A DNA stretch of 64,000 nucleotides, taken from positions 15,585-79,584 of IMG/VR virus record IMGVR_UViG_3300027970_002011, one strand, 5' to 3'. A program made the translations under genes and the position numbers. Below the pieces are notes generated by a model, which was not told the origin of the DNA, did no database searches, and saw only the letters and a list, made by a program, of their open reading frames with translations. Below, one piece after another: positions 825-46,800 of this stretch. Position 1 is the stretch's first letter. Every line of letters starts with the position of its first letter. Origin of the DNA: a virus.

Positions 825-1412
825 GTGAATTGTGGTATCTATAAAATAACTAATGTAGTAACCAATAAAGTTTATATTGGTAGTAGTTTGAATTTATCTA
901 AAAGGGAGTACAAACATTTTTGGATGTTGGATAAAGGTTTACATGATAATTCTTACATTCAAAAGTCATATACTAAACACGGTAAAGATAGTTTTAAATT
1001 TGAAGTTATTGAGTATTGTGAGTCTTTTAAATTGATTGATAAAGAAAATTATTATATTAATTATTATAATTCAAACGATAGTCGTTTTGGTTACAATTTA
1101 GCTATCGTAAATGAGTTTAGACGAAATACCTACAATGATGAAGTTAAAATTAAATTATCAAAATATAATTTAGAAAAAAACGGAAATTTTGATAAATATT
1201 CATTAACAAATATTGAAACTAACGAGTCATTTATTTTTGAATCATTAGTTGATGGCGCAAACTATTTAATAATGAATGGATTTACCAATGGTAGTCCAAG
1301 AAATGTTAGAATGAAAATCTCAAACTCATTAAGAGAGAAAAAAGTTAATAATGGTTACAACGGTTCCATAAGAAAAACTTGTTATAAACATAAATTCAAA
1401 ATAATAAACTAA
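825..1412 (+). CDS. GIY-YIG endonuclease (free-standing, homing-type)
   Basis: CGIYKITNVVTNKVYIGSS motif, later E and GYN; GTG start. Confidence 0.85.
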   Translation: MNCGIYKITNVVTNKVYIGSSLNLSKREYKHFWMLDKGLHDNSYIQKSYTKHGKDSFKFEVIEYCESFKLIDKENYYINYYNSNDSRFGYNLAIVNEFRRNTYNDEVKIKLSKYNLEKNGNFDKYSLTNIETNESFIFESLVDGANYLIMNGFTNGSPRNVRMKISNSLREKKVNNGYNGSIRKTCYKHKFKIIN

Positions 1413-1642: not shown

Positions 1643-2632
1643 ATGGCGTTTATTGACTTAGTAATTCAAGATTTTAATGAAGGTGATTATGACCTTTTAG
1701 AAACCGCATTTAATGGGGATGTCAACACATTTTTTAATTATGTTAATAAAAAAGGTAAATTTGAAGAGATAATTGCCGATGATTATAATCATAACGATTA
1801 TGAAAACGATTACATTCTGTGGGTTTCTAATAACAAACCAGAAATTTTCCGTAAACTTATTGAAGATAAATTATCCGATGTAACATACATTGATGGTAAA
1901 TGGTATTTTATAACATCTGATAGAGGGGATTTATCCAAACTTTATTGTGATGATAGAGATATTGGTCGTAACACAATAGAATCTATATTGTCAGGTGAAT
2001 ATGATAGTTCTGATTATTGGGATTCAGGAATAGATGTCTATGACAACGTAATTGATGATTTAAACGACCAAAACAAACAAACTTTAATTGAAAGATTATT
2101 AGAGGAATTGAAAGATGAAGAAATCTTACCATCAACAGATTTACTAAAAGAAATTGCATCGTCTCAAGGTCATGATGAGTATGTATCTTTAGACACTGAA
2201 ACATTAAGTAGAATAATCAATGATAAAAAATCTATTAAAGAAATCTTACCCGATGATTTAGAAAGTGAGTTGGTGAGTTTATACTGGAGTGCCTATAATG
2301 TGGCATATGAAGATGAACTCTACGAATCTATTTGGAGTGAACTTGATTCTATATTTGAAGGTAATGGTGAATGGACTCAAACACCTTCCCCTTATGATAA
2401 AAATAAATTTACCCAAAAATTTCAAATACCTTTTATAGATTTAGAGTCAATTGTAAAAGATTATCTTGAAGATAATCTTAGATATAAAGATAGAACCTTG
2501 GAGTATTGGGGTAATATTATTAATATAATTGATGATACACATGAGTGTTTAAGAGTTAGAGTACCTGAATATGCAGATTGGACTGAAACCAAACAAAATA
2601 TCAATTCTCTTTACAACGATTACATTTCTTAA
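1643..2632 (+). CDS. Highly acidic hypothetical protein
   Basis: 329-aa ORF, TATTTAT at 1630-1636. Confidence 0.8.
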   Translation: MAFIDLVIQDFNEGDYDLLETAFNGDVNTFFNYVNKKGKFEEIIADDYNHNDYENDYILWVSNNKPEIFRKLIEDKLSDVTYIDGKWYFITSDRGDLSKLYCDDRDIGRNTIESILSGEYDSSDYWDSGIDVYDNVIDDLNDQNKQTLIERLLEELKDEEILPSTDLLKEIASSQGHDEYVSLDTETLSRIINDKKSIKEILPDDLESELVSLYWSAYNVAYEDELYESIWSELDSIFEGNGEWTQTPSPYDKNKFTQKFQIPFIDLESIVKDYLEDNLRYKDRTLEYWGNIINIIDDTHECLRVRVPEYADWTETKQNINSLYNDYIS

Positions 2633-5600
2633 AGTAATCTTTTTTCTTTCGCCTTTACTACAAGTTTTTGAGCTCTGTCTTCAATTGAATTGATAATGAC
2701 TTCTTGCTCTTTCAAAGCCTCAATACACACGGCAATCATCTCTTTGTACTTCATGGTGTAGTTGGTCTCTTCACTACCGAATACAAGTTCAGGGAAATAT
2801 GGTAAAACTTCTTGAGCAATGAAACCAATGTTTTTGTGTCCAAGTTTTTCTTTATCATCCCAATTATAATAGAATTCAACACCACGAATTTTAATTAAAC
2901 TTTCAAGTGCAGATTCAATAGGTTCGATATTTGTCTTTAATCTAATATCAGATGGTCCTTTAGGTCCTGTAGCACCTTGAGCACCTTGTGGTCCTGCAGA
3001 ACCTGTAGCCCCTGTAGCACCTTGAGCGCCAAAACCACTGCCCGCCTTTCCTTGAGCCCCTGTAGCACCTTGAGCGCCTCCAGCACCAGGTCCTTGAGAA
3101 CCTTGAGCACCTTGTGAACCTGTAGTCGGATTTGGAGCACCTTGAGCTCCTTGAGCACCAGCTCCTTCAGAAGGGAAACCTTGAGCACCTTGCGAACCAA
3201 CAGCACCTTGAGCTCCTTGTCCTCCTTGTGGTCCTTGAGCACCTTGTGGTCCTTGTGAACCTTGGCCACCCGCAGCACCTGTTGAGCCACCTCCACCCTG
3301 AGAACCTTGTCCCCCTTGTGTACCCTGAGCACCTTGTCCTCCTTGTGAACCTGTGGCACCTCCACCACCAGTACCACCTTGCGAACCTTGTCCTCCTTGT
3401 GAACCTTGTGAACCTTGAGCACCTGTGGAACCACCACCACCCTGAGAACCTTGTCCTCCCTGAGAACCTTGCGAACCTGTGGCACCTTTACCTCCACCGC
3501 CACCTTGTGAACCTTGTCCTCCTTGAGAACCTTGTGAACCTGTGGCACCTCCACCACCAGTACCACCTTGTGCACCTTGACCTCCTGTCGGACCTGTGGC
3601 ACCTTTACCTCCTTGAGAACCTTGTCCTCCCTGAGAACCTTGTCCTCCTGTCGGACCTGTGGCACCTTTACCTCCTTGTGAACCTTGTCCTCCTTGTGAA
3701 CCCTGACCTCCTGTAGACCCTTGAGAACCTTGAGCTCCTTGACCTCCTTGAGAACCTTGAGCTCCTTTACCACCTTGAGAACCTTGTGAACCTGTGGCAC
3801 CTCCACCACCAGTACCACCTTGCGAACCTTGTCCTCCTTGTGAACCTTGTGAACCTTGAGCACCTGTGGAACCACCACCACCCTGAGAACCTTGTCCTCC
3901 TTGTGAACCTTGTGCCCCCGCACCACCTTGTGAACCTTGTCCTCCTTGAGCTCCTTGACCTCCTTGAGAACCCTGAGCACCTTGTCCTCCTTGAGTACCT
4001 TGTGAACCTTGAGCACCCTGGCTACCAACAGCACCTAACGAACCTTGAGCACCCTGACCACCCTGAGCACCTTGGAAACCTTGTCCTCCTTGAGCCCCTT
4101 GATTACCAGTAGCTCCTTGCGAACCGACAGCTCCTTGAGAACCTTGTCCTCCTTGTGAGCCTTGTGAACCAACCGCTCCTTGCGAACCTTGTCCTCCTTG
4201 AGTACCTTGTCCTCCCTGAGCACCTTGTCCTCCCTGAGCACCTTGTCCTCCTTGAGTACCCTGAGCGCCTTGCCCTCCTTGTGAACCTGTAGCTCCTTGA
4301 GCACCTTGTCCTCCTTGGGTACCCTGAGCACCTTGTCCTCCTTGTGAACCTTGTGAACCTGTGTTACCTTGGGAACCTTGAGCTCCCTGTACTCCTTGAC
4401 CTCCTTGAGCCCCTTGAGCACCCTGAGCACCCTGTCCTCCTTGTGAACCTTGAACTCCTTGACCCCCTTGAGCTCCTTGTGAACCTGTATTACCTTGAGT
4501 ACCTTGAGTTCCTTGTGCACCTTGTCCTCCTTGAGAACCTGTTGCTCCTTGAGCACCTTGTCCTCCCTGAGTTCCCTGAACACCTTGACCACCTTGAGCT
4601 CCTTGTGAACCTGTATTACCTTGAGTACCCTGTCCTCCTTGAGCTCCCTGTCCTCCTTGAGCCCCAACTGCTCCTTGGGAACCTTGACCTCCTTGTGAAC
4701 CTTGAGCACCTTGACCTCCTTGAGCCCCAACTGAACCGGGACTACCTTGTGAACCTTGTCCTCCTTGAGTACCCTGTCCTCCTTGAGCTCCAACCGCTCC
4801 TTGGGAACCTTGTACTCCTTGCGAACCTTGAGCACCTTTTCCTCCCTGAGAACCTTGAGCACCAACGGCACCTTGCGAACCAACGGCACCTTGCGAACCT
4901 TGCCCCCCTTGAGCACCTTGATTACCTGTTGCTCCTTGTGAACCAACGGCACCTTGAGAACCTTGTCCCCCTTGAGCACCTTGATTACCTGTCGCTCCTT
5001 GTGAACCAACGGCACCTTGCGAACCTTGTCCTCCTTGAGAACCTTGTGAACCTGTATTACCTTGAGCACCAATAGGACCTTGAACACCCTGAGCACCTTT
5101 AGCACCTTGAGGACCTACATTACCTTGACTTCCTTGTCCTCCTTGAAAACCTTGACCTCCTTGAGTACCTTGAGAACCTACAGGTCCAACAGCACCCTGT
5201 GAACCTTGAACACCATCAGCGCCTACCGCACCTTGAGCACCTGTATTACCCTGAGAACCTTGTCCTCCTTGAGAACCTTGTCCTCCTTGAGAACCTTGTG
5301 AACCTGTATTACCCTGAGAACCTTGAACACCCTGAGCTCCTTGTCCTCCTTGAGAACCCTGTCCTCCCTGAGTACCTTGAGCTCCTTGTCCTCCTTGAGA
5401 ACCCTGTCCTCCCTGAGCACCTTGTGAACCTACACCACCAACAGCACCTTGTGAACCTTGAGTCCCTTGAGAACCCTGCCCTCCCTGAGTACCTTGTGAA
5501 CCTTGAGGTCCTTTTCCACCTTGGGCACCTTGTCCTCCTTGAGAACCAACATTACCTGTTGCACCTTGTGAACCAACCGAACCTTGTGGACCTGTAGACC

Positions 5601-5925
5601 CAAAATCACCTTGTTTTCCTTGACCTCCTTGAGTTCCCTGAGCACCCGCAGCACCCTGAGCACCTGTTGGTCCGGTATTTGTTGTGCCAGCCCAAAGAGC
5701 ATTATTAACTACAGTACCTGCAGTTGTTGCAATAGTACTAAAAACATAAAGATTGTTAAAAAATAACCTAAATTTAGGTGAGGTATTAATAACTTTAAAA
5801 TAAACAGTAGTACTAACTTTCCAATCAAGTACAGCACTGGAGTAAACCCAAGTTGCCTTAGTATTATTTGTATCATACAACTCAACAGTTGCACTACCTG
5901 GTAATATAACGATATCCTTAGCCAC
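2629..5925 (-). CDS. Collagen-like (Gly-X-Y) fibre protein with C-terminal peptidase S74 intramolecular chaperone (chain C)
   Basis: ~907 aa of GXQ triplets then SDIRLKTNI...GFIAQEV...PELV; GTG start. Confidence 0.9.
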
Positions 5926-8900
5926 CTATTTTTATACTTAAATCTTTAAGAAAATTATTCAATACTTCAACTCTTTTTTGGTTTTCAATTAATGCCGATA
6001 TGCCAACCGAAACCAATAGCTCATATTGTAAATTCTTATAACCATATTTATCTGTCCAAACTAAATCTGGATATTTTTCTTCAATTTCTTGAGCAATAAA
6101 TCCAAGGTTTACACCTGTAATTAGGTATTTGTGTTCTGGTAAATAATCTGACAATTGAGGAATGTCCTCAACCCAATCAAATTTAACACCTCTCATGCTA
6201 ACAATGTTTTGTCTAACGTCTGTAAGAGGTTTAATGTTTGTTTTATATCTGGCATCTGATGGTGGTCCTTGAGCACCTTTAGCACCTTGAGTACCCTGTG
6301 GTCCTTTACCACCTTGAGCACCTGTACCTCCTTGCGGTCCTCTTTGGCCTTGAGAACCCTCGGCTCCTTGAGCTCCGTTACCACTCGGTCCTTTTGTACC
6401 AGTGGCACCTTGAGAACCTTGTGCACCTGCCGGCCCTTTTGGACCTTGAGCACCTTGAGCACCTGGTGTTGGAGGACCTGTGGCACCAAGAACACCTGTA
6501 GTTCCTTGAGCCCCTTGGTTTCCTGCAACTCCTGTATTTCCCGCGGCTCCTTGAGCACCTTGTGTGGATGACGCAGCACCTTGAGTTCCTTGGGCTCCTT
6601 GAGCCCCTTGTACCGAACTTTGAGCACCTTGGGCTCCTTGAGTTGTGCTATTAGCTCCCTGAGCTCCTGTATTACCTTGAGCACCTGTTGCACCTTGAGT
6701 AGAACCTTGAGCACCTTGAGCTCCTGTTGAACCTCCACCACCTTGTGAACCTTGAGCACCGGTGACACTACTTTGAGCACCTTGAGCTCCTTGACCTCCT
6801 TGAGAACCTTGACCTCCTTGTGCACCTTGTACAGAACTTTGAGCTCCTTGAGCACCTTGTCCTCCTTGGGAACCTTGACCTCCTTGTGCACCTGTACTAG
6901 CACCTTGAGCCCCTTGTGAACCCTGAGCCCCTTGGGCACCTGTGTTACCTTGTGCACCGGTACTAGCACCTTGAGCTCCTTGTGAACCTTGTGCACCTTG
7001 GGCACCTGTATTACCTTGAGCACCGGTACTAGCTCCTTGAGCACCTTGGGCTCCTTGAGCACCTTGTTTACCCGTAGCTCCTTGGTCACCTTGGACCGAA
7101 CTTTGAGCACCTTGAGCTCCTTGTCCACCCTGAGCCCCTTGTCCACCCTGAGCCCCTGTATTAGCTCCTTGGGCACCTTGAGCACCTGTTGAACCACCAC
7201 CACCTTGTGAACCCTGAGCACCCGTGACACTACTTTGAGCACCAGTATTTCCTTGTGAACCCTGAGCACCTGTTTTTCCTTGAGCACCCGTAACTCCACC
7301 TTGAGCACCTTGTGCTCCTTGAGCACCTTGTTTACCAACAGCACCTTGAGCACCTGTAATTGCTCCTTGAGGACCCTGAGTACCTTGAGCCCCTGTATTA
7401 CCTGTCGCTCCTTGAGCACCTGTATTACCACCTTGAGCACCTGTGCTACCTTGAGTACCTTGAGCTCCTTGAGCCCCTTGGGCTCCCGTATTAGCACCTT
7501 GAGCACCTTGTGCCCCTTGACCACCTTGAGCACCTGTCGCTCCTTGAGCTCCCGTAGTTCCACCTTGAGCACCTGTACTACCTTGAGCACCTGTATTACC
7601 CGTCGCACCTTGTGCTCCCGTGGTTCCACCTTGAGCTCCTTGAGCCCCTTGAGCACCTGTATTACCTGTTGCACCTTGAGCACCTGTGACTCCACCTTGA
7701 GCCCCTTGAGCACCTTGTCCTCCTTGAGCACCTGTAACTCCCGTAGCTCCTGCGGTTCCTCCTTGAGCACCTATATTACCTTGGGCACCGGTATTACCTG
7801 TAGCACCTTGTGCACCCTGTACAGAACTTTGAGCACCTTGAGCACCTTGAGCTCCTTGAGCTCCTGTATTACCTTGGGCACCTTGAGAAGCACCTTGAGC
7901 TCCTTGAGCACCTTGAGCACCTGTATTACCCGTAGCTCCTTGAGCACCCTGAACAGAACTTTGAGCACCTTGAGCTCCTTGAGCACCTTGAGCACCTGTT
8001 TTTCCTTGAGCTCCCGTAACACCACCTTGAGCACCTTGAGCTCCTTGAGCACCTTGTTTTCCGACGGCTCCTTGAGCACCTGTATTAGCACCTTGAGCTC
8101 CTTGAAATCCTTGAGCTCCTTGTGCACCCGTACTACCTTGAGCACCTGTAACACCACCTTGAGCACCTTGAGCACCTTGAGCACCTTGTTTGCCTGTAGC
8201 TCCTTGGTCACCTTGAACCGAACTTTGAGCACCCACAGAACCTTGAGTACCTTGGGCACCCTGAGCACCTTGTGCACCTGTGTTAGCACCTTGTGCTCCT
8301 TGAGAACCTGTTGGTCCCTGAGCACCTTGAGCACCTTGTGCACCTGTGTTAGCACCCTGAGCACCTTGAGCACCTTTAGGTCCTTGAGCTCCTTGTCCAC
8401 CTTGAGCACCCGTACTAGCACCTTGTGCTCCTTGAGCCCCTTGTCCACCTTGAGCTCCTTGTCCACCTTGAGCACCAGGAGTATCATCCGTACCACCCTG
8501 AGTACCTTGTGCTCCTTGAGCACCTTGGGCACCTTGAGCTCCTGTGTTTGCACCTTGAGCACCTTGAGCACCTATCGGTCCTTGAGAACCTTGTGCACCT
8601 GTTGGTCCGATTACATTACTTGCAGTTCCCTGACTACCTTGTGCTCCTTGAGCACCTGTGTTACCTTGAGCACCCGTGCTAGCACCTTGAGCTCCTTGAG
8701 CTCCTTGAGTACCTTGAGCACCTGTATTACCTTGAGCTCCTTGAGTGGTACTATTAGCACCTTGAGTTCCTTGAGCACCTTGTGCACCCGTTTTTCCTTG
8801 GGCACCTTGGACTGAACTTTGAGCACCTTGAGTTCCTTGAGCACCTTGAGCACCTTGAGCTCCTGTATTACCTTGAGCTCCTGTGTTCGCACCCTGAGCA

Positions 8901-9391
8901 CCCTGAGCACCTTGTGTACCCTGAACTCCTTGAGCCCCTGTGTTAGCCCCTTGGGCACCCTGTCCACCTTGCGTACCTTGGGCTCCCTGTCCACCTTGTG
9001 TACCTTGAGCCCCTTGAGGACCTTGACCTCCTTGAGCCCCTTGAGCACCCGTTGGTCCTTGAGTACCTTGAGCTCCTTGAGCTCCTTTAATATTGGCTTG
9101 TGAACCTATCCATTCTCCAAGATAGTTAATAATCTGAACATACGATGAACTACCATCCCACGCATAAATACCTTCACCATTACTTATGTCATTAACAGAA
9201 AAACCATTAGAAGTGACTGCTTGAGTACCAATACTACCTACAGAAGAATCCGTGGATGATGAGAATGTTAAATCACCATTAGCATTAACTTTTTGAACCA
9301 ACTGATTACCAGTGGCATCCTCATAAATAATAAAAGGTACTCCACCTGAAAAGGTGTTACCTGAAGGGTATATTATAATATCATTAGCCAT
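5918..9391 (-). CDS. Collagen-like fibre protein with periodic interruptions and S74 chaperone (chain B)
   Basis: ~942 aa repeat region then SDARYKTNI...GFIAQEI...PDLV. Confidence 0.9.
6695..8818 (-). repeat. 66-bp / 22-aa super-repeat, (GXY)6 + 4-residue break, 32 consecutive periods
   Basis: Breaks at 8807-8818 (SSVQ) and 6695-6706 (GSTQ) are 2112 bp = 32 x 66 apart, with one break per period in the translation. Confidence 0.85.
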
Positions 9392-12300
9392 TAGTAATTC
9401 TCAATATATTCCTCTAACATAGTTAATCTTTCATCAACAGATGCAATGTTATTTTGATGTTCTTTAATACCTTCAACTAAATATGCATTAAGTTGGGGAT
9501 AAAGGATATAATAAAATCCATTATCTCTCATTTTTACTACTTCAGGGATGTGTTCTCTAACTTGTTGAGCAACAAACCCTAAAGAGTGTGTTTTGTTATT
9601 TTCTAAATAATAATTGTATTCAGGAGTATCTTCGGTCCAATCAAATTCAACAGGTTGTAACATCATCAATTTTGTTAATGAACCCTCTAAAGTTATAACT
9701 TCGTTTTTAAGTCTTAAATCTGATGAGTCATCACAACACATTAATATACATTCAGGGTTCACTTGAGCCTCACCAAACGACATAAATGCACCTCCAAAGA
9801 AGGGGTCACAACTATTACAATCACCCCTATCATATACAGAATCATTAGACAAACATTGTGGGTTCATTGTAGATGAATAAACAGTATAAGAACCAACCTG
9901 ATTAGTTAAAGTACAATCCATATAAAGCTCATGCATACCCAAATTATAACATGTAGGTCCTGATGGTGGACCTGTATCACCTTGGGCACCTTGAGCACCT
10001 TGAGGACCTGTTATACCCGTTGCACCTTGAGCCCCTTGAAAACCTTGACCTCCTGTTTGTCCTTGAGCCCCTTGAGCTCCTTGAGCACCAGGAACACCCA
10101 CACCACCCTGAGTACCTTGAGCACCTGTAGGACCAGCAACTGCAACACCTTGAGCACCTTGTGAACCTTGTGATGGTAATCCCTCAGGACCTTGAGCACC
10201 TTGTCCTCCTGTTGCACCTTGAGCACCAGGACTAATTCCTGTACCTCCTTGTGCACCTTGTCCTCCTGTTGGTCCAAAACCTCCTTGAGCACCTGTCGCT
10301 CCTGTACTACCTTGAGGTCCAAGATTACCTGTATTACCTGTCGGTCCTTTACCACCTTGAGCACCTTGTGAACCTGTGGCACCTCCACCACCTGTAGGAC
10401 CAACCGCACCTACAGAACCTGTACCACCTTGAGAACCCTGAGCTCCTGTGGAACCTTGAGGTCCAAGATTACCCGTAGCACCAGTATTACCTTGGGCTCC
10501 GGTATTACCCGTATTACCTTGAGGTCCTATATTACCCGTAGCACCTGTATTACCTTGAGCACCTTGTGGTCCTGTTGCACCTTGCGAACCTGAGTGACCT
10601 GTAGCACCCTGAGCTCCTGTGGAACCTCCACCACCCGTAGCACCTTGTGCTCCTGAATGACCTGTAGCACCCTGAGCTCCTGTGGAACCTCCACCACCCG
10701 TAGCACCTTGTGCACCGGTATGTCCTTGAGCACCTACGTTACCTTGTGAACCTACAGGTCCTGTAGCACCTGTCGGACCTATATTACCTTGAGCACCAAC
10801 ATTACCTTGAGCACCCGTATTTCCTGTAGCACCTTGTGCACCTGTATTTCCTGTTGCACCGGCACCACCTTGAGAACCTTGAGCACCTGTAGAACCTTGT
10901 GGTCCAATCGCACCTGTATTACCTTGGGCACCCGTTGAACCTTGAGGTCCTGTTGCTCCTTGTGGTCCAACAGCCCCTTGAGCACCTTCATTACCAAATG
11001 CACCTGTTTGTCCTGTAGCTCCTTGTGGTCCTATTGGTCCTTGAGCACCCGTTGAACCTTGAGAACCTTGTGGACCCGTGGCTCCTTGAGGTCCAATAGA
11101 CCCTGTACCACCCTGAGCTCCTTGAGCACCCGTGTTTCCCGTTGCTCCTTGAGCTCCGGTATTACCTTGAGCACCTTGTGGTCCTTTAGCTCCTTGTGGT
11201 CCAATAGCACCTTGTGGTCCAATAGCACCTTGAGTACCCGTTGAACCTTGAGAACCTTGTGGTCCGACGGCACCTTGTGGTCCAACTTTACCTTGAGCAC
11301 CCGTTGAACCTTGAGCTCCTTGTGGTCCGACGGCACCTTGTGGTCCAACATTACCTTGAGCACCCGTTGAACCTTGAGCTCCTTGTGGACCTTTAGGTCC
11401 TTGTGGTCCAATTGACCCTTGGCTTCCTGTATTACCTTGAGAACCCGTAGGTCCTGTGTTTCCTGTCGGTCCAAGATTACCTTGAGCACCGGTGTTACCT
11501 TGAGCACCTTGTGGTCCTGTATTACCTTGTGCACCTGTATGACCTTGAGCTCCTGTTGAACCTTGAGAACCTGTTGGTCCTGTGTTCCCTGTGGGTCCAA
11601 GATTACCTTGAGCACCTATATTACCTTGAGCACCTTGTGGTCCTGTATTACCTTGAGGTCCTACCGCACCTTGAGCACCTTCATTACCAAATGCTCCCGT
11701 GGTACCTGTGGCTCCTTGAGCACCGGTATTACCTTGAGCACCTTGTGGTCCTTGAGCACCTTGTGGTCCCGTATTTCCTTGTGGTCCTAAAGCACCTTGA
11801 GCACCTGTCGAACCTTGGGAGCCGGTCGGTCCTGTAGCCCCTGTTGGTCCTACTGCACCTTGTGCTCCTATATTACCTTGTGCACCCGTGTTACCCGTGG
11901 CTCCTTGTGCTCCTGTATGTCCTATATTACCTTGAGCTCCTTGAGCACCGGTATTACCCGTAGCTCCTTGAGCACCTGTATGTCCCGTATTACCTTGAGC
12001 CCCTTGAGCACCTGTATTACCCGTAGCTCCTTGAGCACCTTTATTACCCTGAGCACCGGTATTGCCTTGAGCACCTGTATTACCCGTAGCACCCGGAGGA
12101 CCAATAGGTCCTTGAGCACCTGTATTACCTTGTGCACCTGCATTACCCGTAGAACCTTGAGCACCTGTATTGCCCGTAGAACCTTGTTTACCTTGAGCCC
12201 CTTGGTCTCCTTGAGCACCTTGGTTACCAATTTTACCTTGAGCTCCTATGGCTCCTTGAGCACCTGTGTTACCTATGGCTCCTTGAGCACCTGTGTTACC

Positions 12301-12960
12301 TTGTGCTCCTACGTTACCTTGAGCACCTTGTGGTCCTTGAGCTCCTGTAAGTCCTTGAGCTCCTTGAGCCCCTATATTACCCTGTGCACCCGTTGGTCCT
12401 ACCGCACCCGTTGGTCCAATATTACCGATTGCACCTTGAGCACCTATATTACCCTGTGCACCCGTTGGTCCTACCGCTCCTTGAGCACCTGTATTACCAA
12501 TGTTACCTTGAGCACCTGTATTACCCGTAGCTCCTTGAGCACCTGTATGTCCTGTATTACCTTGAGCACCTTGAGCTCCAACGTTTCCTTGAGCACCCGT
12601 ATCGCCCACCTTACCCTGAGCACCAATATTACCTGTATTACCTTGAGCACCTGTATTACCCGTAGCACCTTGAGCGCCAACAATATTTGTTGTGGGACCT
12701 ACCCATCCTTTAGTACCATTTAAAACTTGGACACCATTGACAGATAGATTATCTGTAACATTAAGATTTCTAACTGTGAATTCAGTATCAGATAATTTGA
12801 ATATTGTGTTAGCACCGACAATCCATTGAAAACTCGTTGTGGCTCCACCTGTTGCAAGCACACGACCAGTCATTGATGCAGTTCCACCATCAAAATAAAA
12901 ATAAGGAACTGTTATACTTGCTCCATCCCCATCGGGATAAATAGTAATATTTTTAGGCAT
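9391..12960 (-). CDS. Collagen-like fibre protein with Cys-rich tip and S74 chaperone (chain A)
   Basis: ~909 aa Gly-X-Y, 76-aa domain with 8 Cys, then SDLRLKNEV...GFVAQQV...PEVV. Confidence 0.9.
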
Positions 12961-12980
12961 CTTTGGATTTTATACTCTCT

Positions 12981-12987
12981 ATAAATA
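12981..12987 (-). promoter_or_regulatory. TATTTAT motif, candidate phage (late) promoter for the fibre operon
   Basis: Same motif on the coding strand just upstream of about 12 gene starts in the window. Confidence 0.55.
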
Positions 12988-13027: not shown

Positions 13028-13051
13028 AAAAAAGGATGGTCACCCATCCTT
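13028..13051 (-). terminator. Intrinsic terminator after glutaredoxin
   Basis: AAGGATGG-4nt-CCATCCTT stem with T run on minus strand. Confidence 0.75.
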
Positions 13052-13054
13052 AAA

Positions 13055-13336
13055 TTATTTTATTAAATGTTTTTTTACTATGTCCAATGCCTCGGTGAGC
13101 TCATTATAATCTCTTTCGGGTGCGTATAAAAATGATTTACGTTTTTCACCACCATCTTTAATTATCATTAAAGCAGGTATGTATTCATTTTCAGTGGCTT
13201 TAATAAATAAATCATACTCTTCCGAATATTTGTCAATATCTCTGTCAACAAACTTAATCTTATTTTCTTTAAGTAAGTCCTTAAACTCCGTGCAGAAAGG
13301 ACATCCCTTCATAGTATAAACAACAACCGTAGTCAT
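13055..13336 (-). CDS. Glutaredoxin-like protein
   Basis: VYTMKGCPFC, later IP motif. Confidence 0.85.
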   Translation of the reverse strand: MTTVVVYTMKGCPFCTEFKDLLKENKIKFVDRDIDKYSEEYDLFIKATENEYIPALMIIKDGGEKRKSFLYAPERDYNELTEALDIVKKHLIK

Positions 13337-13647
13337 TAATACTGTCCCATAAGTTCCATTATCTGTTGTTGTGTCAAAACTCCTGAATTAGTTTTAACTA
13401 CTTCACCATCTTTGAAAATTTTTACTGTGGGTACTGAACGGATTCCCATCTCTGATGTTAATTCACGGTTTGAGTCCACATCATATTTGAACATCTCCAT
13501 TGGGAGTTCTTGACCACTGTCTGCAAGTTTTTGCATGTTACCCATTAATACTTTACATGGTCCACACCAAGTGGCGTACATATCCAAAAAGAAAGTCTCT
13601 TTGTTTGCAATTTTTACTTTAATCTCCTCTGCGGTAAGTTGTTTCAT
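13336..13647 (-). CDS. Thioredoxin
   Basis: YATWCGPCK and IRSVPT. Confidence 0.92.
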   Translation of the reverse strand: MKQLTAEEIKVKIANKETFFLDMYATWCGPCKVLMGNMQKLADSGQELPMEMFKYDVDSNRELTSEMGIRSVPTVKIFKDGEVVKTNSGVLTQQQIMELMGQY

Positions 13648-14298: not shown

Positions 14299-15630
14299 TT
14301 AGACTTCATCATCTTGTGAGAACTTATCCCACATACCTGTTTCCATTTCAGACCAACCATTCGCCTCTAATGACTTTGGTGCAGATACTCCTGTGTCCTT
14401 AAAGTTAATGAATTCCAAGTTTTCCATGGTTCCTAAACATTCAGGTAGACTTGTTAGTTGAGGATTACTCATAACACCTAAAATATTCAAGTTGTTCAAC
14501 TGACAAATGTAATCAGGTACATTATTAATACAATTTACCAACACCAAGTGTTTAAGATTTTTGAACCTTGTAATTGAAGGTGGGATAGTGATAATAGTAC
14601 CAGCGTTGTCTTTATTCTTAATTTTGATTTGTTCTAATGTATCAGGTAATGAATTAAACAATTCTTCCAATCCATAAAGACCTACAAACTTACCAACAGA
14701 ACCTGAACCAAATCCATCAATCTTCAAATCTTTACCAGAACCTGCCGTCAAACCTTTTGCAAATTCAGGTTTGAAGTATTGCTTAAGTTCTGCCATAGGA
14801 CCGTTTAATAAGTCCACCAAATTAACACTTCTATCATCTTTATCCATAAACTGATTAGAAGGGAAGTGAAATTGGTATCTTTCAATTGGTAATCCTGTTT
14901 GTGCAGATATCTTAGGGTCATTTGGATTGTACACAACATATAAAGGTCCGTCCTTGATGTAATTGTTAAACCAACTTAAACCAGGTGCAGAAGTACACCA
15001 TCTCGTCTCTTGTTGATTACCACCATAGAAACATGCAGCTTCTTTACCTCTTTCACCCTTATCTTCAATTTTTACAACTTTCCATGTTTCACCATCATAA
15101 CTTGAGTCAGCACCAGGGTGAACAGGAAGACTCTTTCTTTCAGCCTTTGTTGTTACCGCCAAAGTTAAATCAAAGTCCTTAATCGCATCATATAATGCAT
15201 CCACACTCAATTTATTAATATCTCTTTGTTCAACAGGAACTCTACCCTTAAATCTGTGAAACTTTTTCAAGTCATCAGTAACCTTATAAAGGTCTTCCAT
15301 GAAACGGTCTTTCATGACCTTTACTTCCTGGTCAAAACCATAATCACCAAATGCACGTTCTGTTGTAGGATTTAAATATTGTTTGATTAACCACGGTGTG
15401 TATTCACCAACTTTAACCTTTTCCAATTCTTCTTTAGTTGCATTGTCTAAATTAACATTATTCAATCTTGATGTAGGGTCGGCATTGATAAGTTTGTAAA
15501 GCTCATCTTTTTTCATTTTTGGAGCAATAACGTTCTCACCCTTTTTATTAGGTTTTACATACTTGTTCATCAAGATTTCAAATCTTGACTGTTCTAAAAT
15601 TATTTGTTTTAATACTGACGTGAATTTCAT
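14299..15630 (-). CDS. YG...TxWCT-motif phage protein with C-terminal leucine-rich repeats
   Basis: AACFYGG...TRWCTSA...GPLY; LRRs such as IPPSITRFKNLKHLVL and LPECLGTMENLEFIN. Confidence 0.75.
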   Translation of the reverse strand: MKFTSVLKQIILEQSRFEILMNKYVKPNKKGENVIAPKMKKDELYKLINADPTSRLNNVNLDNATKEELEKVKVGEYTPWLIKQYLNPTTERAFGDYGFDQEVKVMKDRFMEDLYKVTDDLKKFHRFKGRVPVEQRDINKLSVDALYDAIKDFDLTLAVTTKAERKSLPVHPGADSSYDGETWKVVKIEDKGERGKEAACFYGGNQQETRWCTSAPGLSWFNNYIKDGPLYVVYNPNDPKISAQTGLPIERYQFHFPSNQFMDKDDRSVNLVDLLNGPMAELKQYFKPEFAKGLTAGSGKDLKIDGFGSGSVGKFVGLYGLEELFNSLPDTLEQIKIKNKDNAGTIITIPPSITRFKNLKHLVLVNCINNVPDYICQLNNLNILGVMSNPQLTSLPECLGTMENLEFINFKDTGVSAPKSLEANGWSEMETGMWDKFSQDDEV

Positions 15631-16523: not shown

Positions 16524-17135
16524 TTATATTATTTGTTTGAATTTTATAAATTTTCTTTCTAAGAAGGTCACCGCGTTTGAGTAAATATAATCTCTAAATT
16601 TCATAATATCCATAATTTTACTAATTTTTACGATAGAATAATTTTCATATTTATACGATTTACCATATCCAAAAAAATTAACTATATCATCATTGAAATT
16701 ATTATTTGAACATATACTAACAGAAAATGAATTAGTTCTGTTTTTTACTTTGTGAATACTTCCATCTCCGTCAAAATATCCCCTAATAAAATGAGACATG
16801 TGTGGCTCATCTAATTTTGGTAACAATATTTTTTGAGTTTTATTATTAACACATCCTAACTCAAATAGTTTATTAACTAATAAATTTGAATATAACGTAA
16901 CCATACAATATTCAGATTTACCGTCAACACCACATTTTATTGGTTTTTCACATTCTATGTCTTTAAGAAATTTTTCAATGTGGTTTTTATCAGTATTTTT
17001 TAGTTTTAATTTTATCTCACCACTTTTACCATCTTTCATTCTTACGTAACCATCGGCATATAAAAACCCCAACCAATACGCCGATTTTTCATTTAAATCA
17101 TGAAAAAAACACTCATTAAAATTATATTTTCTCAT
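16524..17135 (-). CDS. LAGLIDADG homing endonuclease (two motifs)
   Basis: AYWLGFLYADG and HFIRGYFDGDG. Confidence 0.88.
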   Translation of the reverse strand: MRKYNFNECFFHDLNEKSAYWLGFLYADGYVRMKDGKSGEIKLKLKNTDKNHIEKFLKDIECEKPIKCGVDGKSEYCMVTLYSNLLVNKLFELGCVNNKTQKILLPKLDEPHMSHFIRGYFDGDGSIHKVKNRTNSFSVSICSNNNFNDDIVNFFGYGKSYKYENYSIVKISKIMDIMKFRDYIYSNAVTFLERKFIKFKQII

Positions 17136-18595: not shown

Positions 18596-19522
18596 TCAAT
18601 TAGAATTCAAATCAGATTTGTTGAACTTAACTCTCAATTTGACATACATATCCCCTGTTGGGTAACCTTTACCTTTAAGTCTTAAAGGTTTGTTTGTATC
18701 AAATTCATTTGGTGACGGAATTTTAATATCACCATCAGGGTGTGGGATATGATATACATCATTTTTAAGTTCATCATAATTGAACTCTAAATTATAAATC
18801 AAATCATTACCCATCTTTTGAAACTCTTTTGTGTTGTCCATAACAACCTGAATTATCAAATCACCATAGAAACCATATGAGAAATCACCCTTTTGAGAAA
18901 TACGTAGGAACTGACCGTCATCAACATTCTTTGGGATGGTAATTTTAATGGTTTCAAATTTTGGTTTGGTACCAACACCACTACATGAATTACAATATTT
19001 TGTTAGGATTGAACCTGTCGTACCACAGTGTCCACATCCACGTCTAACAACTTGTTGTAAGAATCCTGAACCCATAACTTGAGTAGTGAATCCTTGACCT
19101 TGACAGTGATGACACGTGACTCTATCACCACCACTACCCCTACAATCACCACACGGATGGTTTCGTTGGAAGTTTAAGTCTTTCTCCACACCCTTATACG
19201 AATCTATCGGTGTGAGGTTTAGTTTGACAATCTTATCGGCATTTTTTCTTGGACTTTGTGGTCTTTGACCCCCACTAAACATGTTTTTAAAGAAATCCTC
19301 AAATTCAGTTCCATTAAATGGGTTGTTTTTCTGGCTTAAGTAGTTATTCTTTTTAGTAGGGTCTGAAAGAACGTCGTAGGCTTCGGCTATTTCACGAAAT
19401 TTTTCACCACCCTCAGGATTAACATCAGGATGGTATTGTTTAGACAATTTTCTATAAGCACGTTTAAGTTCTTCATCAGTGGCATTGTCCTGCACACCTA
19501 ATATTTCATAGTAATCTTTCAT
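18596..19522 (-). CDS. dnaJ: DnaJ co-chaperone
   Basis: J-domain with HPD, four CxxCxGxG repeats, C-terminal domain. Confidence 0.93.
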
Positions 19523-39902: not shown

Positions 39903-41900
39903 TTATACCCCACCGCCAGCTTGATTAGCCCCAAGAGCATGTTGCATTATTGCCGTTCCTTCACTATTCACAACTGAACAACAAATACATCCTGAGATAG
40001 ATTGATTTGTGGTTGATACTGTCACATTTTGTTTAATAACTGTTGAACATCCTTGGACATTTCTTGGTAGAGTAACTTCCATGTCAGATACTGATGTACC
40101 GCTAACAACATCATTATAACCCATCGTAATTGTTGTATAGGTTGAAACATCAACGGTTTGAGTTTGTGTATTTGGTGAACAATATGGTCTATTAGTTGTT
40201 GATGAACTTGATACTGGTGTAGTTGTTAATGTTGTGTTGTTTTTCTTAACCACATTTGTATAATCAATTATACCGTCACCAGGTCTTTGAACCAATTGGT
40301 CGTTATTAATTAACAAATCAAATGTGATTTGTGTACCTTGTGGGATTGGTGGTATAATATTAACCTTCCAAGTCATTGACTCTTGATTTACTCCAATTGG
40401 ATTTGATAGTTTCTGAACACCAATACTATAAGTTGTAACCGATGCTTGGTTTGCAACTGTTGTTACTTGAGAGTACTCATCACCATTTGAATCTTTTACC
40501 ACAACACTATAACTTCCACCACACAAATCAGAGAATATGTTTGATGTTTGGTATGTTGTTCCATTGTTAATAGAATATTGGTAAGGTCCTGTTCCTCCAA
40601 TCGGATTAATTAAGATTGAACCGTTACAAACTGCTTCACAGTCTGCCAAACTTGTAAGAATTTGTGCCGATAAGAATACCGCAGTTGCACATGATTCATC
40701 CTGAACACTAACAGTTGCAGGAATTTCTGAACCAACTGAATACCAACCACTCAATGGTGGTACTGTTGGTGATTGTGAGTTAAGTGTTCCACCATATGCT
40801 GTGTATCCACTCGTTACCCACACACCTTGAGTTGGGTTCCATACAACATTGTATCCTGAACCATTTGTCCATGATGGTTTACCATTGACAACACCATTTG
40901 GTGTAAATTCAATTTGAACAGGAACTTGTTCTTGCCAAATAATATTAAAACAAAGTGTTGGATAAACTGGTGATGGTGTTGGTGTATTTGTTGGTGTAAG
41001 TGTTGGCGTTGGTGTTGGTGACGGAACTATCATTGAACATGTTGTAGTCGCTGTAAAATCACCATAAAAATCAACAACAGTTACTGTGTATTCACCCCCA
41101 TCTAAATTAAATAGGTATGGTGTTTTTTGTCCACCCTCCCAAGTAATATTATAAGGAGCAGTTCCACCTGTTATTCTCAAATATAATTTTCCATCGTAAC
41201 TTGTTGAAGACGATGGGTTGGTTCCATAACATTCAACCCCAAGTGGAAACAATGTAATTACATCACAATTGTTCGCTAATTTTGTAAAGGATTGATTACT
41301 TGGAGTAATCGTTGGAGTAGGTGTTAAAGTTGGTGTGGGTGTTGGTGTCTTTGTATTTGTCGGTGTTGGTGTAAGAGTATTTGTTGCCGTTATTGAAGGT
41401 GTGGGTGTTGGTGTTACACAAGACGTTGACGCTGGTACCCCCAATTTAACAACACCGTTGTATGGCTTTGTGTAATCAAAAATAATTGCGGTTTCTTCTC
41501 CGTTTCCTTCTTGAAACACTCCACAACAATCATAATAATAGTATTGTCCTGTTGTATAACCTGAACCACAAACTATTAATGTTGGTGTTGGTGTGTGGTT
41601 TGGGGTTCTTGTTGGGAATGGACTTGGGGTAAACGAAGGTTCAGGAGTTTCCTCACAAGGATAAAGTAATATACCCTCAAAATTAATATAACCTGTTCCA
41701 CCATTTTCAATATAGACATCCTCAGAATCTGAGTAAGCACCGTTCTCTAAACAACCACAAACACTTGAAAATTGTCCCGCACCAATAACATGACTTTCAA
41801 GAGATAAGGTGGTACAATTATAGGTATAATAAATCTGATTTACATCAGAATTATTCCATACCATCCATCTAACACAAGTTGTACAAGCCATCAGGGACAA
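39903..41900 (-). CDS. Cys-rich structural protein with Thr-Pro linkers and SprB-like repeats
   Basis: [12 protein letters not shown]...GEYTVTVVD and [14 protein letters not shown]...GSYSVVVKD. Confidence 0.75.
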
Positions 41901-42538
41901 ATAATAAAGTCAATTATGATTCCTGTTGAATCTATTTGTACCGCGTATGTATTAGCACCAAATGTCATTTTTCTCCACCTATTAATTTGATTTACCGGAT
42001 TGTATAAAACACCCCCAAGATTTGTTGAATAAACCTCCGCACCCAATACAGGTATTGTTGGTGTATCAACATAATAAGTATAGTATTGAGTCACCAAAAG
42101 TGAATCATCACAAACACCTGAAGAACCAACATATAAATTAGCACCTATGGTGTGTCCATAAACTAATGGAGTTGGAGTTGGAGTAGGTGTTTTAGTTGGC
42201 GTTGGAGTCGGTGATGCAACTACACTGGTTGATACAGTTGGTGTAACAGTTGGTGTCACCGTTTTAGTTGGTGTTGGAGTTGCCGTCTTAGTTGGTGTTG
42301 GCGTTTGTGTGGGCGTTGGAGTTGGTGTTATGGCAACTGTATGATAAACTATACAACCAGCAACGTCCACAACTTTAATTATAAAATTTTCTGTAGCATA
42401 TGTGTCATCAACTTCAAACACATATGGTGCATTTGCAACAGTTGAGACATAGGTACAACTACCACTTAAAGCATCACAAACATACACATCAAAAGGTGTG
42501 TTAGCTGTAATTGTAGTTATTTCTATATTAACTGGCAT
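41891..42538 (-). CDS. Thr-Pro-linker protein
   Basis: N-domain PFDVYVC...IKVVD..GC paralogous to 42556..43815. Confidence 0.75.
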
Positions 42539-42555
42539 CAGTTATAAATAATATT

Positions 42556-43815
42556 TTATTGGTATTTTATGTATACCGGTTGATTAACAACAAAATTTAT
42601 TGGTGAACCCGAAATCAATACAAGTTGTCCCGCTTGAAGTGGTGCTGTTTCATCATGGAAGAAGTTAGAACCATCAACCGCGAAACTATTTGTATTACCA
42701 CTATAAGTTGCCGTAGCACCACTTTGAGAGAATGATATTGAATAAGAACTTGTTGTTAACAAGTTGGAATAATAACTGTATCTGCTTGTACCACTAATGT
42801 CAACATAACTCCAATAAACCGCTCTATCAGAAATTCCGAATTGATTTGGTGTTGTAATACCTGTTGATGTTATGTAGTTTAAGAACACTGTTTCACCGGT
42901 AGGTGGAGTGTTAAAATTCGTATTCAAATCATACGCAAAACCAAGTAATGGTCCTCCTGATGGAGTTACCGTTGGTGTTGGTGTAGTACTCGGACTAAGA
43001 CCAGGTGTTACTGACGGTGTTGGTGTGGGCGATTGAGTCGCCTCAGGAGTTATTGAAGGTGTTACCGAAGATGTTGGTGTAGGACTAACAATCAAGGAAC
43101 TAGTCGGAGTAATAGTGTTTGTTGGAGTAACTGATGGACTTACTGTTATACTCGGTGTAATTGTTTGAGTTGGTGTTAAAGAATTTGTCGGAGTTACTGT
43201 TGGTGTTACTGTAACTGTTGAAGTTGTCGTTATTGTTGGAGTTGGTGTTTGAGTTGATGTTGGTGTTTGAGTTGGAGTTTCAGTTGGGGTTGGGGTTTGA
43301 GTCGCTGTTTGTGAAGGTGTGTTAGTTGGTGTGTATGTTGGAGTAACTGTAGGAGTTGGTGTCTTACTTGTTGTTGGAGTAAGTGAGTTTGTTGGCGTTA
43401 CTGTAGGTGTTAACGAGTTCGTGGGGGTTGAAGTTTTAGTAGGTGTAACGGTTGGAGTTGAAGTTTTGGTTACAGTTGGTGTCGGTGTTTGTGTTGTAGT
43501 ACTAGTTGGTGTTACAGTGTTTGTTGGTGTGAGTGATGGAGTTAAACTTATTGACGGTGTAACAGTCGGCGTTGGTGTTGGAGTTACGGTATATGCAATT
43601 GATGTGATACCTGTTATCACACAATTTTCATCATCCACAACTTTAACCATGTAACTATCACCATTGTTGTACGGTGATGGTATATCAAATATGTATGGTA
43701 AATCGCCAGTCACAATAGTTGATATGTAAAAGCATGAGGTACCACCACTTTGACAGATATAAACATCATATGGTGACGTTCCTGTAAGAGAATTGATTGT
43801 AACTTTTATTGCCAT
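42556..43815 (-). CDS. Mucin-like Thr-Pro repeat protein
   Basis: ~210-aa T/P/S tract between two globular domains. Confidence 0.8.
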
Positions 43816-43816
43816 T

Positions 43817-46800
43817 TTAACATTCGGTTATTGTTGATGGTGTAATACTTTTAACCATCAAAGGACTTGTTGATACCGTATCAGGTAATGAAGTGTAAGG
43901 ACAAATATCACAAGTTGACGAGTTGTATACTTTAGAACCTGTTGTTTGACCTTGTTGGATTGTTACTGTAAGTTCAGTAGTACTGTTACCTAAACAGTCA
44001 AAAGTTTCCATTTCAAATACCACTTGTACGGTTTGTGTTGCAGCTACAGGAATTCCGTTATTTAATAATGTAACCGTTATTTTATTTTCTGTTCTTGTAT
44101 ATCCTCCACACTGGTCAGGTAAGTTATTATTATAATTCGCATCATCCCAAGAAATACAAGCGATTTGACTATTAGTACCTGTTGAACCAACACAAGTTTC
44201 ACAATCTTGGTAAACAACTGTTTGTAGTCCCGCGAAATAATCACCACTGTAGTTTATGATGTTGGTATTACCCACAGGGTAGTAACTTTGGTATTGTCCA
44301 ACATATACCCAACAATTACCTTCTGAGTCTTTGAATGATTTAGTTGGTGTTAATGCAAATTCAACAAATGAAGTTTGAAGAACTGTTGTCTGAGAATATC
44401 CAAAACTATTCTGAGAACAAGATTGGAATACATATATCCATGCCACGTTAGTTGATGATGGTGTTGGTGTTAATGTCGGTGTAATTGAAGGTGTTGGTGT
44501 CATTGTTGGTGTTAATGTTGGTGTTGGTGTAAACGCAACTTCACAATCCACACAATTACCATACATGGCTTTAACTTCACTAACGGTTGAGTTAGAAGAT
44601 AAATTCTCATCATTTCTAACATAAGTTAAACAGAAGATATCCCCGTTAAGTACTCCTAAGAATGTTGTACCAGCAACTAAAGGTGTTCCACTAAACACAA
44701 GTGAATCATTTGTATAGAACTCAAGGTCACTTTGACAATCCTTCAATACTTTTGTGGTTACACAAGTAAATGCATCATCCACAAATCTGTATGTCACAGC
44801 CCCAGCAACATCCACAGTTCTTGTTGGACTTAAAGATAATGTTGGGGTTGGTGATGGAGTTTCAGGTAAGAATCTTTCAAAATCAAAATCAATACCCGTA
44901 TTACATGTAGGTGTTGATGGTGTCGGTGTTGGCGTAACCGCAAACTTAGTAAATTCAAAATTAACTACGTCACAAGTTATTGATGGTGTTGGTGATGGAT
45001 ATGGAACATAGTCACAATCAAAATACGCAACAAAATCTAAAGTGTTACAATTTATCGGCGAAGGCGTTGGTGTTGGACAAATTCCTGTTGTAAAGTAGTT
45101 GGCTGAAATGTCAGGACAAGGATTATAACATGGGTGTGCTCCCTCTAATAAACAACTACCACCCAAAGTATCACTTAAACACCAAAACGAACCTGTGTAG
45201 TAAATGTAACCTGTTGTAACACTATCTCCTGTATAATAATATCTTGAGTTATATGTTCCCCCAATTTCATAGTTACCTGAGTAATCTACCAAATCAGGTA
45301 GACTGGTTCTCAAGCAAAATTCTGTAGTTGCACACACACCCACCGATGGTGTTGGTGTTGGAGTAGCATTTGGGGTTCTTGTTGGACTTGGTGTTGGATT
45401 AATTACACAAATACCTGTTTGAACCACAATTACCTCAGAAGGTGCAATTATAGTATCTTCACAAACACAATATGTTGTTACCTCTAAAGGTGCCAATTCA
45501 ACGGTCAATTCATTTCCATAACAATCAATGTAACTAACTTCAGCAAAGGTAGTGTCACTAGTGTTTGTTATATCATATTCCAAACAATTACAAAGAATTG
45601 TTGGGGTATCTGTTACTGAAGGTGTGATAGTTGGTGTAACCGAAACACTTGGTGTTATAGATACTGATGGTGTAACGGTTGGAGTTGTTGTTGGAGTAAC
45701 TGTTGGTGTTTTTGTAACTGTTGGTGTAACAGATACTGATGGCGTAACAGAAACCGAAGGAGTTACCGACACAGAAGGTGTAACTGATGATGTAGGTGTT
45801 AGTGTCGGTGTAACACTTGAAGTTGGCGTTGTTGTTGGAGTGTTGGTTGGGGTTATAGTTGGGGTTGGTGTCAAAGAGGGACATACGTATGGTTGTAACG
45901 TAAAACAATCATTACAAGTTAAATAAAACGTAAGTGTATGTCCAACAGCATTATAAATTGGACCACTTGCAACATATGGTATTACTGTCGCACACCCTGT
46001 AAATGAAGGTCCTGTAATACCATAGGTATCACCCTCATTTAAAATACCCGAAACATTTTGGAATCTAAATACGTTACTTGGGTTACAACAATCTTGAAAT
46101 AAATAAATGTCATAAGGTTCCGATGGAGTAACCGTAGGAGTTACCGTTGGAGTTACTGATATACTTGGTGTAATAGAAGGCGTGTTTGTAGGAGTTACCG
46201 TTGGAGTCGTTGTTGGCGTATTTGTGGGAGTATGTGTTGGTGTTACAGACTCTGTTGGAGTTGGTGTAATTGTTGGCGTTGATGTCGGTGTATCCGATGG
46301 AGTTACCGATGCCGTAATTGATGGTGTATTAGTAGGTGTAGAAGTTGGTGTGTCTGTTGGAGTAACCGATGGTGTGACTGTTGGTGTAACAGAAGACGTT
46401 GGAGTTATTGTATTAGTTGGAGTTATTGTATTAGTTGGAGTAATTGTATTAGTTGGAGTAACTGTTGGTGTTAAAGATTCTGTCGGAGTTACTGACGGTG
46501 TATTGGTTGGTGTTGTTGATGGCGTTAATGGTGGTGTACCTGTTGGTGTAACAGAAGACGTTGGAGTTATGGTATTAGTTGGTGTAATTGTTGGGGTAAC
46601 AGTGTTGGTTGGTGTAGTACTATTTGTAGGAGTCACCGTTGGAGTTACGGATTCTGTTGGTGTCACAGTAACTGACGGTGTTAAAGAACTTGTTGGCGTA
46701 AGTGAAGGTGTATTTGTAGGAGTATTGGTTGGTGTATTTGTAGGAGTATTTGTTGGTGTAAGTGTTGGTGAATTTGTAGGAGTATTGGTTGGTGAATTTG

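Follow-up and report, generated by a model that had tools for sequence, protein, structure and literature searches.

To our knowledge, heterotrimeric collagens are held to be an animal invention, and the collagens of prokaryotes and viruses are held to be homotrimers. In complement C1q, three clustered genes (A, C and B) encode a heterotrimeric collagen stalk, one chain of which contains an inserted Thr. Among phages, endosialidase K1F/NF, the T5 L-shaped fibre pb1 and the GA-1 neck appendage are reportedly fibres or spikes with a C-terminal S74 intramolecular chaperone. Here we describe a locus in which both kinds of element, long Gly-X-Y repeats and S74 chaperones, occur together in three adjacent paralogous genes, designated A, B and C. 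The locus lies in a 64,000-nucleotide stretch of DNA from an uncultured lake phage (hereafter the window, meaning the whole stretch analysed), which is the final 64 kb (positions 15,585 to 79,584) of the 79.6 kb IMG/VR record IMGVR_UViG_3300027970_002011, a record of 26% estimated completeness. Judging from the sequences of the window and its relatives, A, B and C would be the three strands of a single ABC heterotrimeric collagen-like phage fibre, a reading to which we give a probability of roughly 0.75.

Three collagen-like chains of matched length

The region 2629–12960 is filled by three minus-strand open reading frames (ORFs) in the order A-B-C, encoding chain A (9391–12960, 1189 aa), chain B (5918–9391, 1157 aa) and chain C (2629–5925, 1098 aa, with a GTG start inside the overlap with B). 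At the A/B junction the stop codon of A overlaps the start codon of B in a TAATG at 9391, and at the B/C junction the genes share the 8 nt GTGGCTAA at 5918–5925, confirming the three overlapping paralogous ORFs of a preliminary description made from the window alone. These stop/start overlaps, TAATG and GTGGCTGA, are kept throughout the A-B-C family, and by their sequence the three genes are translationally coupled.

Each chain consists of an 84–102-aa N-terminal domain (N-domain), about 900 residues of Gly-X-Y repeat and a C-terminal Peptidase_S74 domain. The repeats match Pfam Collagen (PF01391) with E-values of 1e-53 to 1e-115 and comprise residues 95–999 of chain A (9964–12678), 103–1044 of chain B (6260–9085) and 85–992 of chain C (2950–5673), all on the minus strand. 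Lengths were counted as units in the Gly register, so that one-residue insertions contribute nothing and each break of two or four residues is scored as one unit. By this measure chain A has 306 units including its irregular start (918 aa if the first irregular triplets are included), chain B 303 units in 942 aa, and chain C 302 units in 908 aa; the numbers of uninterrupted Gly-X-Y triplets are 303, 288 and 299, respectively. The hand counts of the preliminary description (about 909, 942 and 907 aa for A, B and C, with about 38 breaks in B) thus hold.

The chains differ in composition and in how their repeats are interrupted. Chain B has 24 one-residue and 14 four-residue breaks (together 38 of +1 residue) as well as two two-residue breaks, and its +1 breaks sit on a lattice of 7 units (22 residues). 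Chains A and C have only 3–4 breaks each, all close to the C-terminal end, where the preliminary description had likewise seen the repeats become irregular. Chain A has the highest content of Pro at X and Thr at Y among the three, and carries Ile/Val/Leu/His “nodes” in phase with the breaks of B. Chain C is rich in GSQ and GGQ, with Gly at X in 24% of its triplets.

Relatives were sought in viral and metagenome contigs using the N-domain alignment and the A-type S74 alignment, which yielded approximately 130 further loci (L076–L209), and length co-variation was analysed in 30 distinct complete A-B-C trios. The order A-B-C is nearly universal, all three genes being complete at 54 loci and the remainder cut by contig ends. 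The N-domains split into three groups of 30 sequences, as do the S74 domains, hence the chain types predate the radiation of these phages. On this phylogenetic evidence A, B and C are three ancient orthologous types that are always found together.

Although the unit count per chain spans more than 3-fold among the 30 trios (98 to about 362), the counts move together. The three chains lie within 3 units of each other in 17 of 30 trios, compared with a mean of 0.3 and a maximum of 4 when chains were shuffled between genomes (20,000 shuffles), and pairwise correlations of unit counts are r = 0.98–0.99. The preliminary description had expected such slippage-prone repeats to drift in length unless constrained, and had proposed co-variation of repeat length among relatives as the check; the outcome is positive, and once relatives are counted the match is far beyond chance. 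It is also a match of units, with a mean range within matched trios of 1.7 units against 7 triplet-equivalents when measured by residues. Matched trios include those with 270/270/273, 195/195/194, 142/142/141 and 98/99/98 units for A/B/C, and the same lengths are seen again in independent assemblies. L021, which is the nearest distinct relative, is only 57–66% identical to the window chains, with many gaps, yet has 306/305/306 units. In L080 the chains measure 765, 762 and 724 residues but 255/254/253 units, because its C chain contains 35 one-residue-short breaks.

Gene conversion is excluded as the cause of the match, since over the final 110 collagen codons paralogue DNA is 64% identical in the same genome and 62% identical across genomes. 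In more distant collagen-S74 genes of other jumbo phages (L023, L033 and others) the N-domains are unrelated and the lengths do not match; these genes fall outside the family and were left out. In a separate observation, the close relatives L185 and L078 have 263/270/266 and 270/270/273 units, A and C being 7 units shorter in one while B is the same, and this pair may be a caught intermediate of stepwise length change.

A common register across the chains

The positions of breaks are related between chains. The +1 breaks of B-type chains in relatives lie on the 7-unit lattice too, and wherever this lattice has a hole, the C chain encoded by that genome shows a −1 break. Holes in the B lattice (intervals of at least 11 units) make up approximately 20% of the break range of B, and every one of the 29 −1 breaks of C within that range (29/29, from about eight lineages) lies in a hole, most holes containing a single break. 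In L091, five 14-unit repeats are present in all three genes, as repeats of 42, 43 and 41 residues. Over the final 36 units, breaks coincide (within ±1 unit) between chains of one genome 44 times, whereas permutation between genomes gave 25.9 coincidences on average and never more than 41 (5000 permutations; p ~2e-4). All three chains of the window break at unit 23 from the C-terminal end, and the three chains of L021 at units 26–27. The nodes of chain A keep a fixed phase with the breaks of B along the entire rod (30 of 40 B breaks in the window), and this phase is identical in L021, L100 and L178.

Charged residues follow a similar pattern when the chains are aligned by unit from the C-terminal end. 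In designed ABC heterotrimers, an axial salt bridge from Lys at Y to Asp/Glu at X in the following triplet of a neighbouring strand sets composition and register (PMC7824840). The chains of L080 have net charges of −21 (A), +27 (B) and +24 (C), and each of the 26 Asp/Glu residues at X in its A chain is matched, exactly one unit to the N-terminal side, by Lys at Y in B and by Lys/Arg at Y in C (26/26). These acid sites are irregularly spaced, by 6, 7 or 13 units. The window is more sparsely charged; of its 13 acid-bearing units, 7 face a Lys on a different chain at this +1-unit offset, and random relative shifts of the chains gave at most 6 pairs in 5000 trials (p ~2e-4). These pairs link acids of A with Lys of B (A-Asp994, and A-Glu at units 114 and 191), acids of B with Lys of C (B-Asp at units 89, 208 and 237) and an acid of C with Lys of A (C-Asp at unit 251). 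The offset remains constant across about 20 of the +1 breaks of B, indicating that the extra residues leave the register unshifted. A one-residue offset at the helix/S74 junction between B (G-x-P-S-D) and C (mostly G-P-S-D), suggestive of an inherent stagger of the chains, was found in only 9 of the 13 lineages compared and is not used as evidence. By sequence, the breaks and charged residues of the three chains are thus placed in one common register.

Terminal domains and the predicted fibre

The N-domains comprise residues 1–94 of chain A (12679–12960, assigned to the A-type group in the N-domain tree and presumed to be the virion anchor), 1–102 of chain B (9086–9391) and 1–84 of chain C (5674–5925, from the GTG start). 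The motif M-x-x-[DN]-I-x-I-x-P … W-x-G, already described as common to the three chains, is borne out; 72 related sequences conserve it, and I7, P9, W and G never vary among them. The AlphaFold model of the B domain (pLDDT 79) is a beta meander of nine strands. None of the three N-domains matched a Pfam family, a protein homology search with that of chain A gave no matches, and an ESM Atlas search gave no usable match. Foldseek returned no match to the model at E ≤ 0.001, and VIA-align scored highest against generic beta-meanders (Z 7.7); beta-helices of phage spikes and fibres were among its weak matches, and none was significant.

The record contains exactly three Peptidase_S74 copies, at the C-terminal ends of chain A (9394–9723, from Ser1080 of S-D-L-R-L-K), chain B (5921–6259, with Ser1045 immediately after the last triplet) and chain C (2632–2952, where the final triplet has the cleavage Ser992 as its Y residue), each on the minus strand. 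Their profile scores (PF13884; 38.6, 42.6 and 53.2 bits) exceed the curated cut-off of 22, which bears out the earlier assignment of an S74 chaperone to each chain. The cleavage motif S-D-x-R-x-K is intact in all three (SDLRLK, SDARYK and SDIRLK in A, B and C), its Ser, Asp and Lys are invariant in the A-type S74 alignment, and the S74 sequence matches the solved tail fibre 8JOV. Pairwise identity between the chains is just 23–29% for N-domains and 29–33% for S74 domains, hence A, B and C are old paralogues and not recent copies.

Only chain A has a further domain between helix and S74, a Cys-rich tip of 80 residues with 8 Cys (residues 1000–1079, 9724–9963, minus strand). This tip is hypervariable, being 46% identical to that of the close relative L008, where the flanking domains are 92–94% identical, a pattern which fits a receptor-binding role. 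In every A-type tip that could be delimited by script the number of Cys is even (6, 8 or 10), with the first Cys 1–5 residues past the helix and the last 0–6 residues before the cleavage Ser. The tip would loop out at the helix/S74 junction, and Cys near both ends of the domain would suit such an arrangement.

In one lineage, represented by L094 (4107–12917) and L178 (77–12745), the linkage between N-domains and S74 domains is permuted. The first gene joins an A-type N-domain to a B-type S74, the second a C-type N-domain to the Cys-rich tip and an A-type S74, and the third a B-type N-domain to a C-type S74. The permuted chains remain matched, at 223/221/222 and 363/361/362 units respectively, hence each genome retains one domain of each type, whatever the linkage. 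A single swap of the inner blocks (S74-A/N-B with S74-B/N-C) by recombination inside the collagen repeats would explain the permutation, and in support of such a swap the characteristic GTGGCTGA junction moves together with the S74-B/N-C block. Globular inserts of 64–221 aa are also found within the collagen region of the A-type chains of L077 (9997–13069), L177, L099 (where the insert lies mid-rod), L204, L117 and L092, and likewise in gene 1 of L094 and L178. The triplet-unit match of these insert-bearing chains to their partner chains is intact.

The co-variation of units, the break lattices, the coincident C-terminal breaks and the acid/base pairs at +1 unit together support the 1:1:1 co-assembly suggested in the preliminary description, since a 1:1:1 triple helix predicts such a shared register. 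In the mechanism we propose, the three paralogous S74 domains would associate 1:1:1 at the C-terminus, akin to a procollagen C-propeptide, and this mixed trimer would act as the nucleus for an ABC triple helix that zips up from the C- to the N-terminus over about 303 units, a predicted length of ~303 × 0.86 nm, or ~260 nm. Each S74 would then cleave itself at the Ser of S-D-x-R-x-K. The extra residues of B (mostly Thr, or a unit of the S-S-V-Q type) would bulge every 7 units without shifting the register, and, since 7 units are one strand turn in a 7/2 collagen helix, the bulges would lie on one face of the rod; the short units of C would be stretched. The mature fibre would carry a single disulfide-rich, hypervariable tip from chain A, likely an adhesin, which would be the only distal globular domain remaining after S74 cleavage. 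At the other end, the three N-domains would form a pseudo-threefold beta domain anchoring the fibre to the virion of a ~300-kb T4-like myophage.

Several points weigh against this proposal. Ten of the 30 trios differ by 7–42 units, mostly in multiples of 7 or 14, and some of these are near-identical phages differing in one gene only (L091, L179, L190); L151 and L096 are further examples of mismatch. Near-identical repeats of 63 or 126 bp may plausibly have collapsed during short-read assembly, or else the variation is real and tolerated. Charge pairing was not significant in L093, and most lineages carry too few charges for the pairing test. Chain A alone has ~80 residues between helix end and S74, which would have to loop out of the junction, and the fold of this tip could not be modelled, the AlphaFold model being unusable (pLDDT 40). 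Single-chain bulges at this density (38 in the helix), with very little proline besides, are without experimental precedent. All characterised S74 fibres that we know of are homotrimers, and the characterised prokaryotic collagens are homotrimers also (PMC8968730).

One rival reading is of three separate homotrimeric fibres, A3, B3 and C3, each with an orthogonal S74 that keeps the chains from mixing, and selected for equal physical length through homologous N-domain attachment and the same reach. The precedent of characterised S74 fibres and prokaryotic collagens, all homotrimers, would then be kept, three divergent S74 types could provide the orthogonality, the breaks of B would all be matched within a B3 helix, and trios of mismatched length do exist. 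A constraint on physical length should, however, equalise residues to a few percent, and not units to ±1–3 at any length. Separate homotrimers also leave the shared register unexplained, in that there is no reason for the breaks of C to fill holes in the B lattice, for C-terminal breaks to coincide within genomes, or for acids and bases of different chains to face each other at a fixed +1-unit offset. B3 and C3 would moreover be rods without a tip, and homotrimers in L080 would bear about −63, +81 and +72 unpaired charges. We consider separate homotrimers unlikely.

Other forms of in-register co-assembly seem similarly improbable, whether as a nine-chain bundle of side-by-side homotrimers or as another stoichiometry (e.g. 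AAB) alongside ABC. Rods aligned laterally would also be consistent with the matched units, with breaks at shared levels and with acid/base nodes that sit level with one another, and designed helices are known to associate laterally through unpaired Lys/Asp (PMC7824840). The geometry of the pairs, with the acid at X and the base at Y one unit N-terminal, is nevertheless that of the axial pair within a helix (PMC7824840). Nor does a bundle explain why breaks in B and breaks in C are mutually exclusive on a single lattice, and in most lineages the chains are almost uncharged, leaving little to hold a bundle together. ABC is the best fit to the conserved 1:1:1 translational coupling and to genomes that each have one domain of every type. 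Finally, that the length match is a functionally meaningless residue of shared ancestry or an assembly artefact is very improbable, for although repeat assemblies from metagenomes are error-prone and a third of trios are mismatched, the globular parts are only 23–33% identical between paralogues that predate the phage radiation, lengths have changed more than 3-fold yet in step, identical lengths recur in independent assemblies, and assembly errors would break a match, not make one.

We think it probable that the locus represents the first described natural non-animal heterotrimeric collagen. The three self-cleaving S74 domains would serve as a heterotrimeric “C-propeptide” choosing a single chain of each type, bulges of one chain would recur on a 7-unit lattice along a rod in common register, some lineages would add a charge code of Lys at Y and Asp at X like that which chemists came to design later, and only one chain would bear the adhesin tip. 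In our literature search neither a natural heterotrimeric collagen from outside animals nor a mixed S74 trimer was found, and the nearest parallels in logic are C1q and procollagen. If the proposal is true, a self-selecting, self-processing three-gene ABC collagen in a phage would change the animal-only view of heterotrimeric collagens and show the S74 chaperone to be capable of mixed trimers. It would reveal a new fibre architecture, a ~260-nm rod with a single monomeric tip, in a widespread freshwater jumbo phage group. It would also offer a genetically encoded, hydroxyproline-free source of register-defined heterotrimeric rods, a long-standing difficulty in collagen engineering, with a tunable length (98 to ~360 units in nature).

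Genomic setting and comparison with known systems

Upstream of chain A, at the boundary of the trio, a terminator-like hairpin with an 8-bp stem followed by a T-run (13032–13051, minus strand) lies between the trio and a glutaredoxin gene, and a putative late-promoter-like motif, TATTTATA (12980–12987, minus strand), lies ~20 nt upstream of the chain A start codon. As both precede A, the trio looks like a separate transcription unit. The glutaredoxin gene (13055–13336, minus strand) and a thioredoxin gene (13336–13647, minus strand) stand directly upstream of chain A, cut off from the trio by the hairpin, and their position beside the gene with the disulfide-rich tip is kept in all ~20 relatives checked (58–83% identity).

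Complete relatives are ~320 kb in size, with direct terminal repeats assigned in one. They carry a T4-type Gp23 capsid gene and a ~1070-aa ORF with a weak, sub-threshold match to a tail-sheath profile. No close cultured relative was found in the phage collection.

Other genes of the window include two homing endonucleases, of the GIY-YIG (825–1412, plus strand) and LAGLIDADG (16524–17135, minus strand) types. Each is present at its site in just one or two of the relatives checked, hence they are probably mobile insertions. A full-length DnaJ-like chaperone with J domain, CXXCXGXG zinc centre and C-terminal domain (18596–19522, minus strand) is ~50–74% identical in relatives. A 443-aa protein (14299–15630, minus strand) is 60–76% identical across the family and outside it resembles only proteins of PA5oct-like Pseudomonas jumbo phages that are labelled hypothetical or “structural” (29% over ~170 residues). 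A fourth Gly-X-Y protein (62219–64000, minus strand; GSS/GTS triplets, Pfam Collagen E 4e-33) has no S74, is cut off by the end of the contig and does not belong to the trio. Large ORFs of 665, 419 and 1329 aa (39903–47806, minus strand) may be further surface proteins; the first matches the SprB repeat, which hints at a Bacteroidota host, and the other two match phrog_15511.

Compared with the S74 fibres and spikes of other phages, the trio agrees in having a C-terminal S74 with its Ser…Lys motif directly after a predicted trimeric fibre segment. The known fibres of that kind are single-gene homotrimers, however, whereas in the trio three paralogous S74 types co-occur, the rods share one register, and two of the three chains lack a folded domain between rod and chaperone.

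Among animal proteins, C1q is likewise a clustered paralogous trio with length-matched collagen regions and interruptions in only some chains, the ABC helix of the phage trio being predicted from sequence. C1q differs in that it is an animal protein which picks its chains via a C-terminal gC1q head that is retained and not self-cleaving, and its stalk has ~80 residues compared with ~900 in the phage trio. In the logic proposed here the chains are chosen, and their register set, by a C-terminal domain, as in procollagen I and collagen IV; the later removal of that domain is shared with type I, and the tolerance of many interruptions with type IV. The C-terminal family of the trio is unrelated, though, and its removal would be autocatalytic instead of the work of a separate proteinase. 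Unlike these collagens, the trio is nearly without proline and presumably has no hydroxyproline. None of the animal trimerisation domains (C-propeptide, NC1, gC1q) was found in the trio, S74 being the sole C-terminal family detected, and the phage trio is an analogue of the animal heterotrimeric collagen families, not a member.

The designed ABC heterotrimers of Hartgerink and others are resembled by L080, with one acidic chain bearing Asp/Glu at X and basic chains bearing Lys/Arg at Y one triplet N-terminal, and by the window with its 7 such pairs. The phage chains are, however, natural, ~30 times longer and sparsely charged, and most lineages are nearly uncharged. Scl1/2, BclA and the collagens of prophages and tail fibres are likewise surface fibres made of Gly-X-Y rods, with much Thr, Gln and Ala and no hydroxyproline, and collagen motifs have been recognised in phage tail fibres for a long time (references in PMC4621102). 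From these prokaryotic and phage proteins, which where characterised are homotrimers (PMC8968730), the trio is set apart as a three-gene set with co-varying length. The parts of the locus, collagen repeats and S74 chaperone, thus belong to known families, and it is their three-gene arrangement that, going by our literature search, is new.

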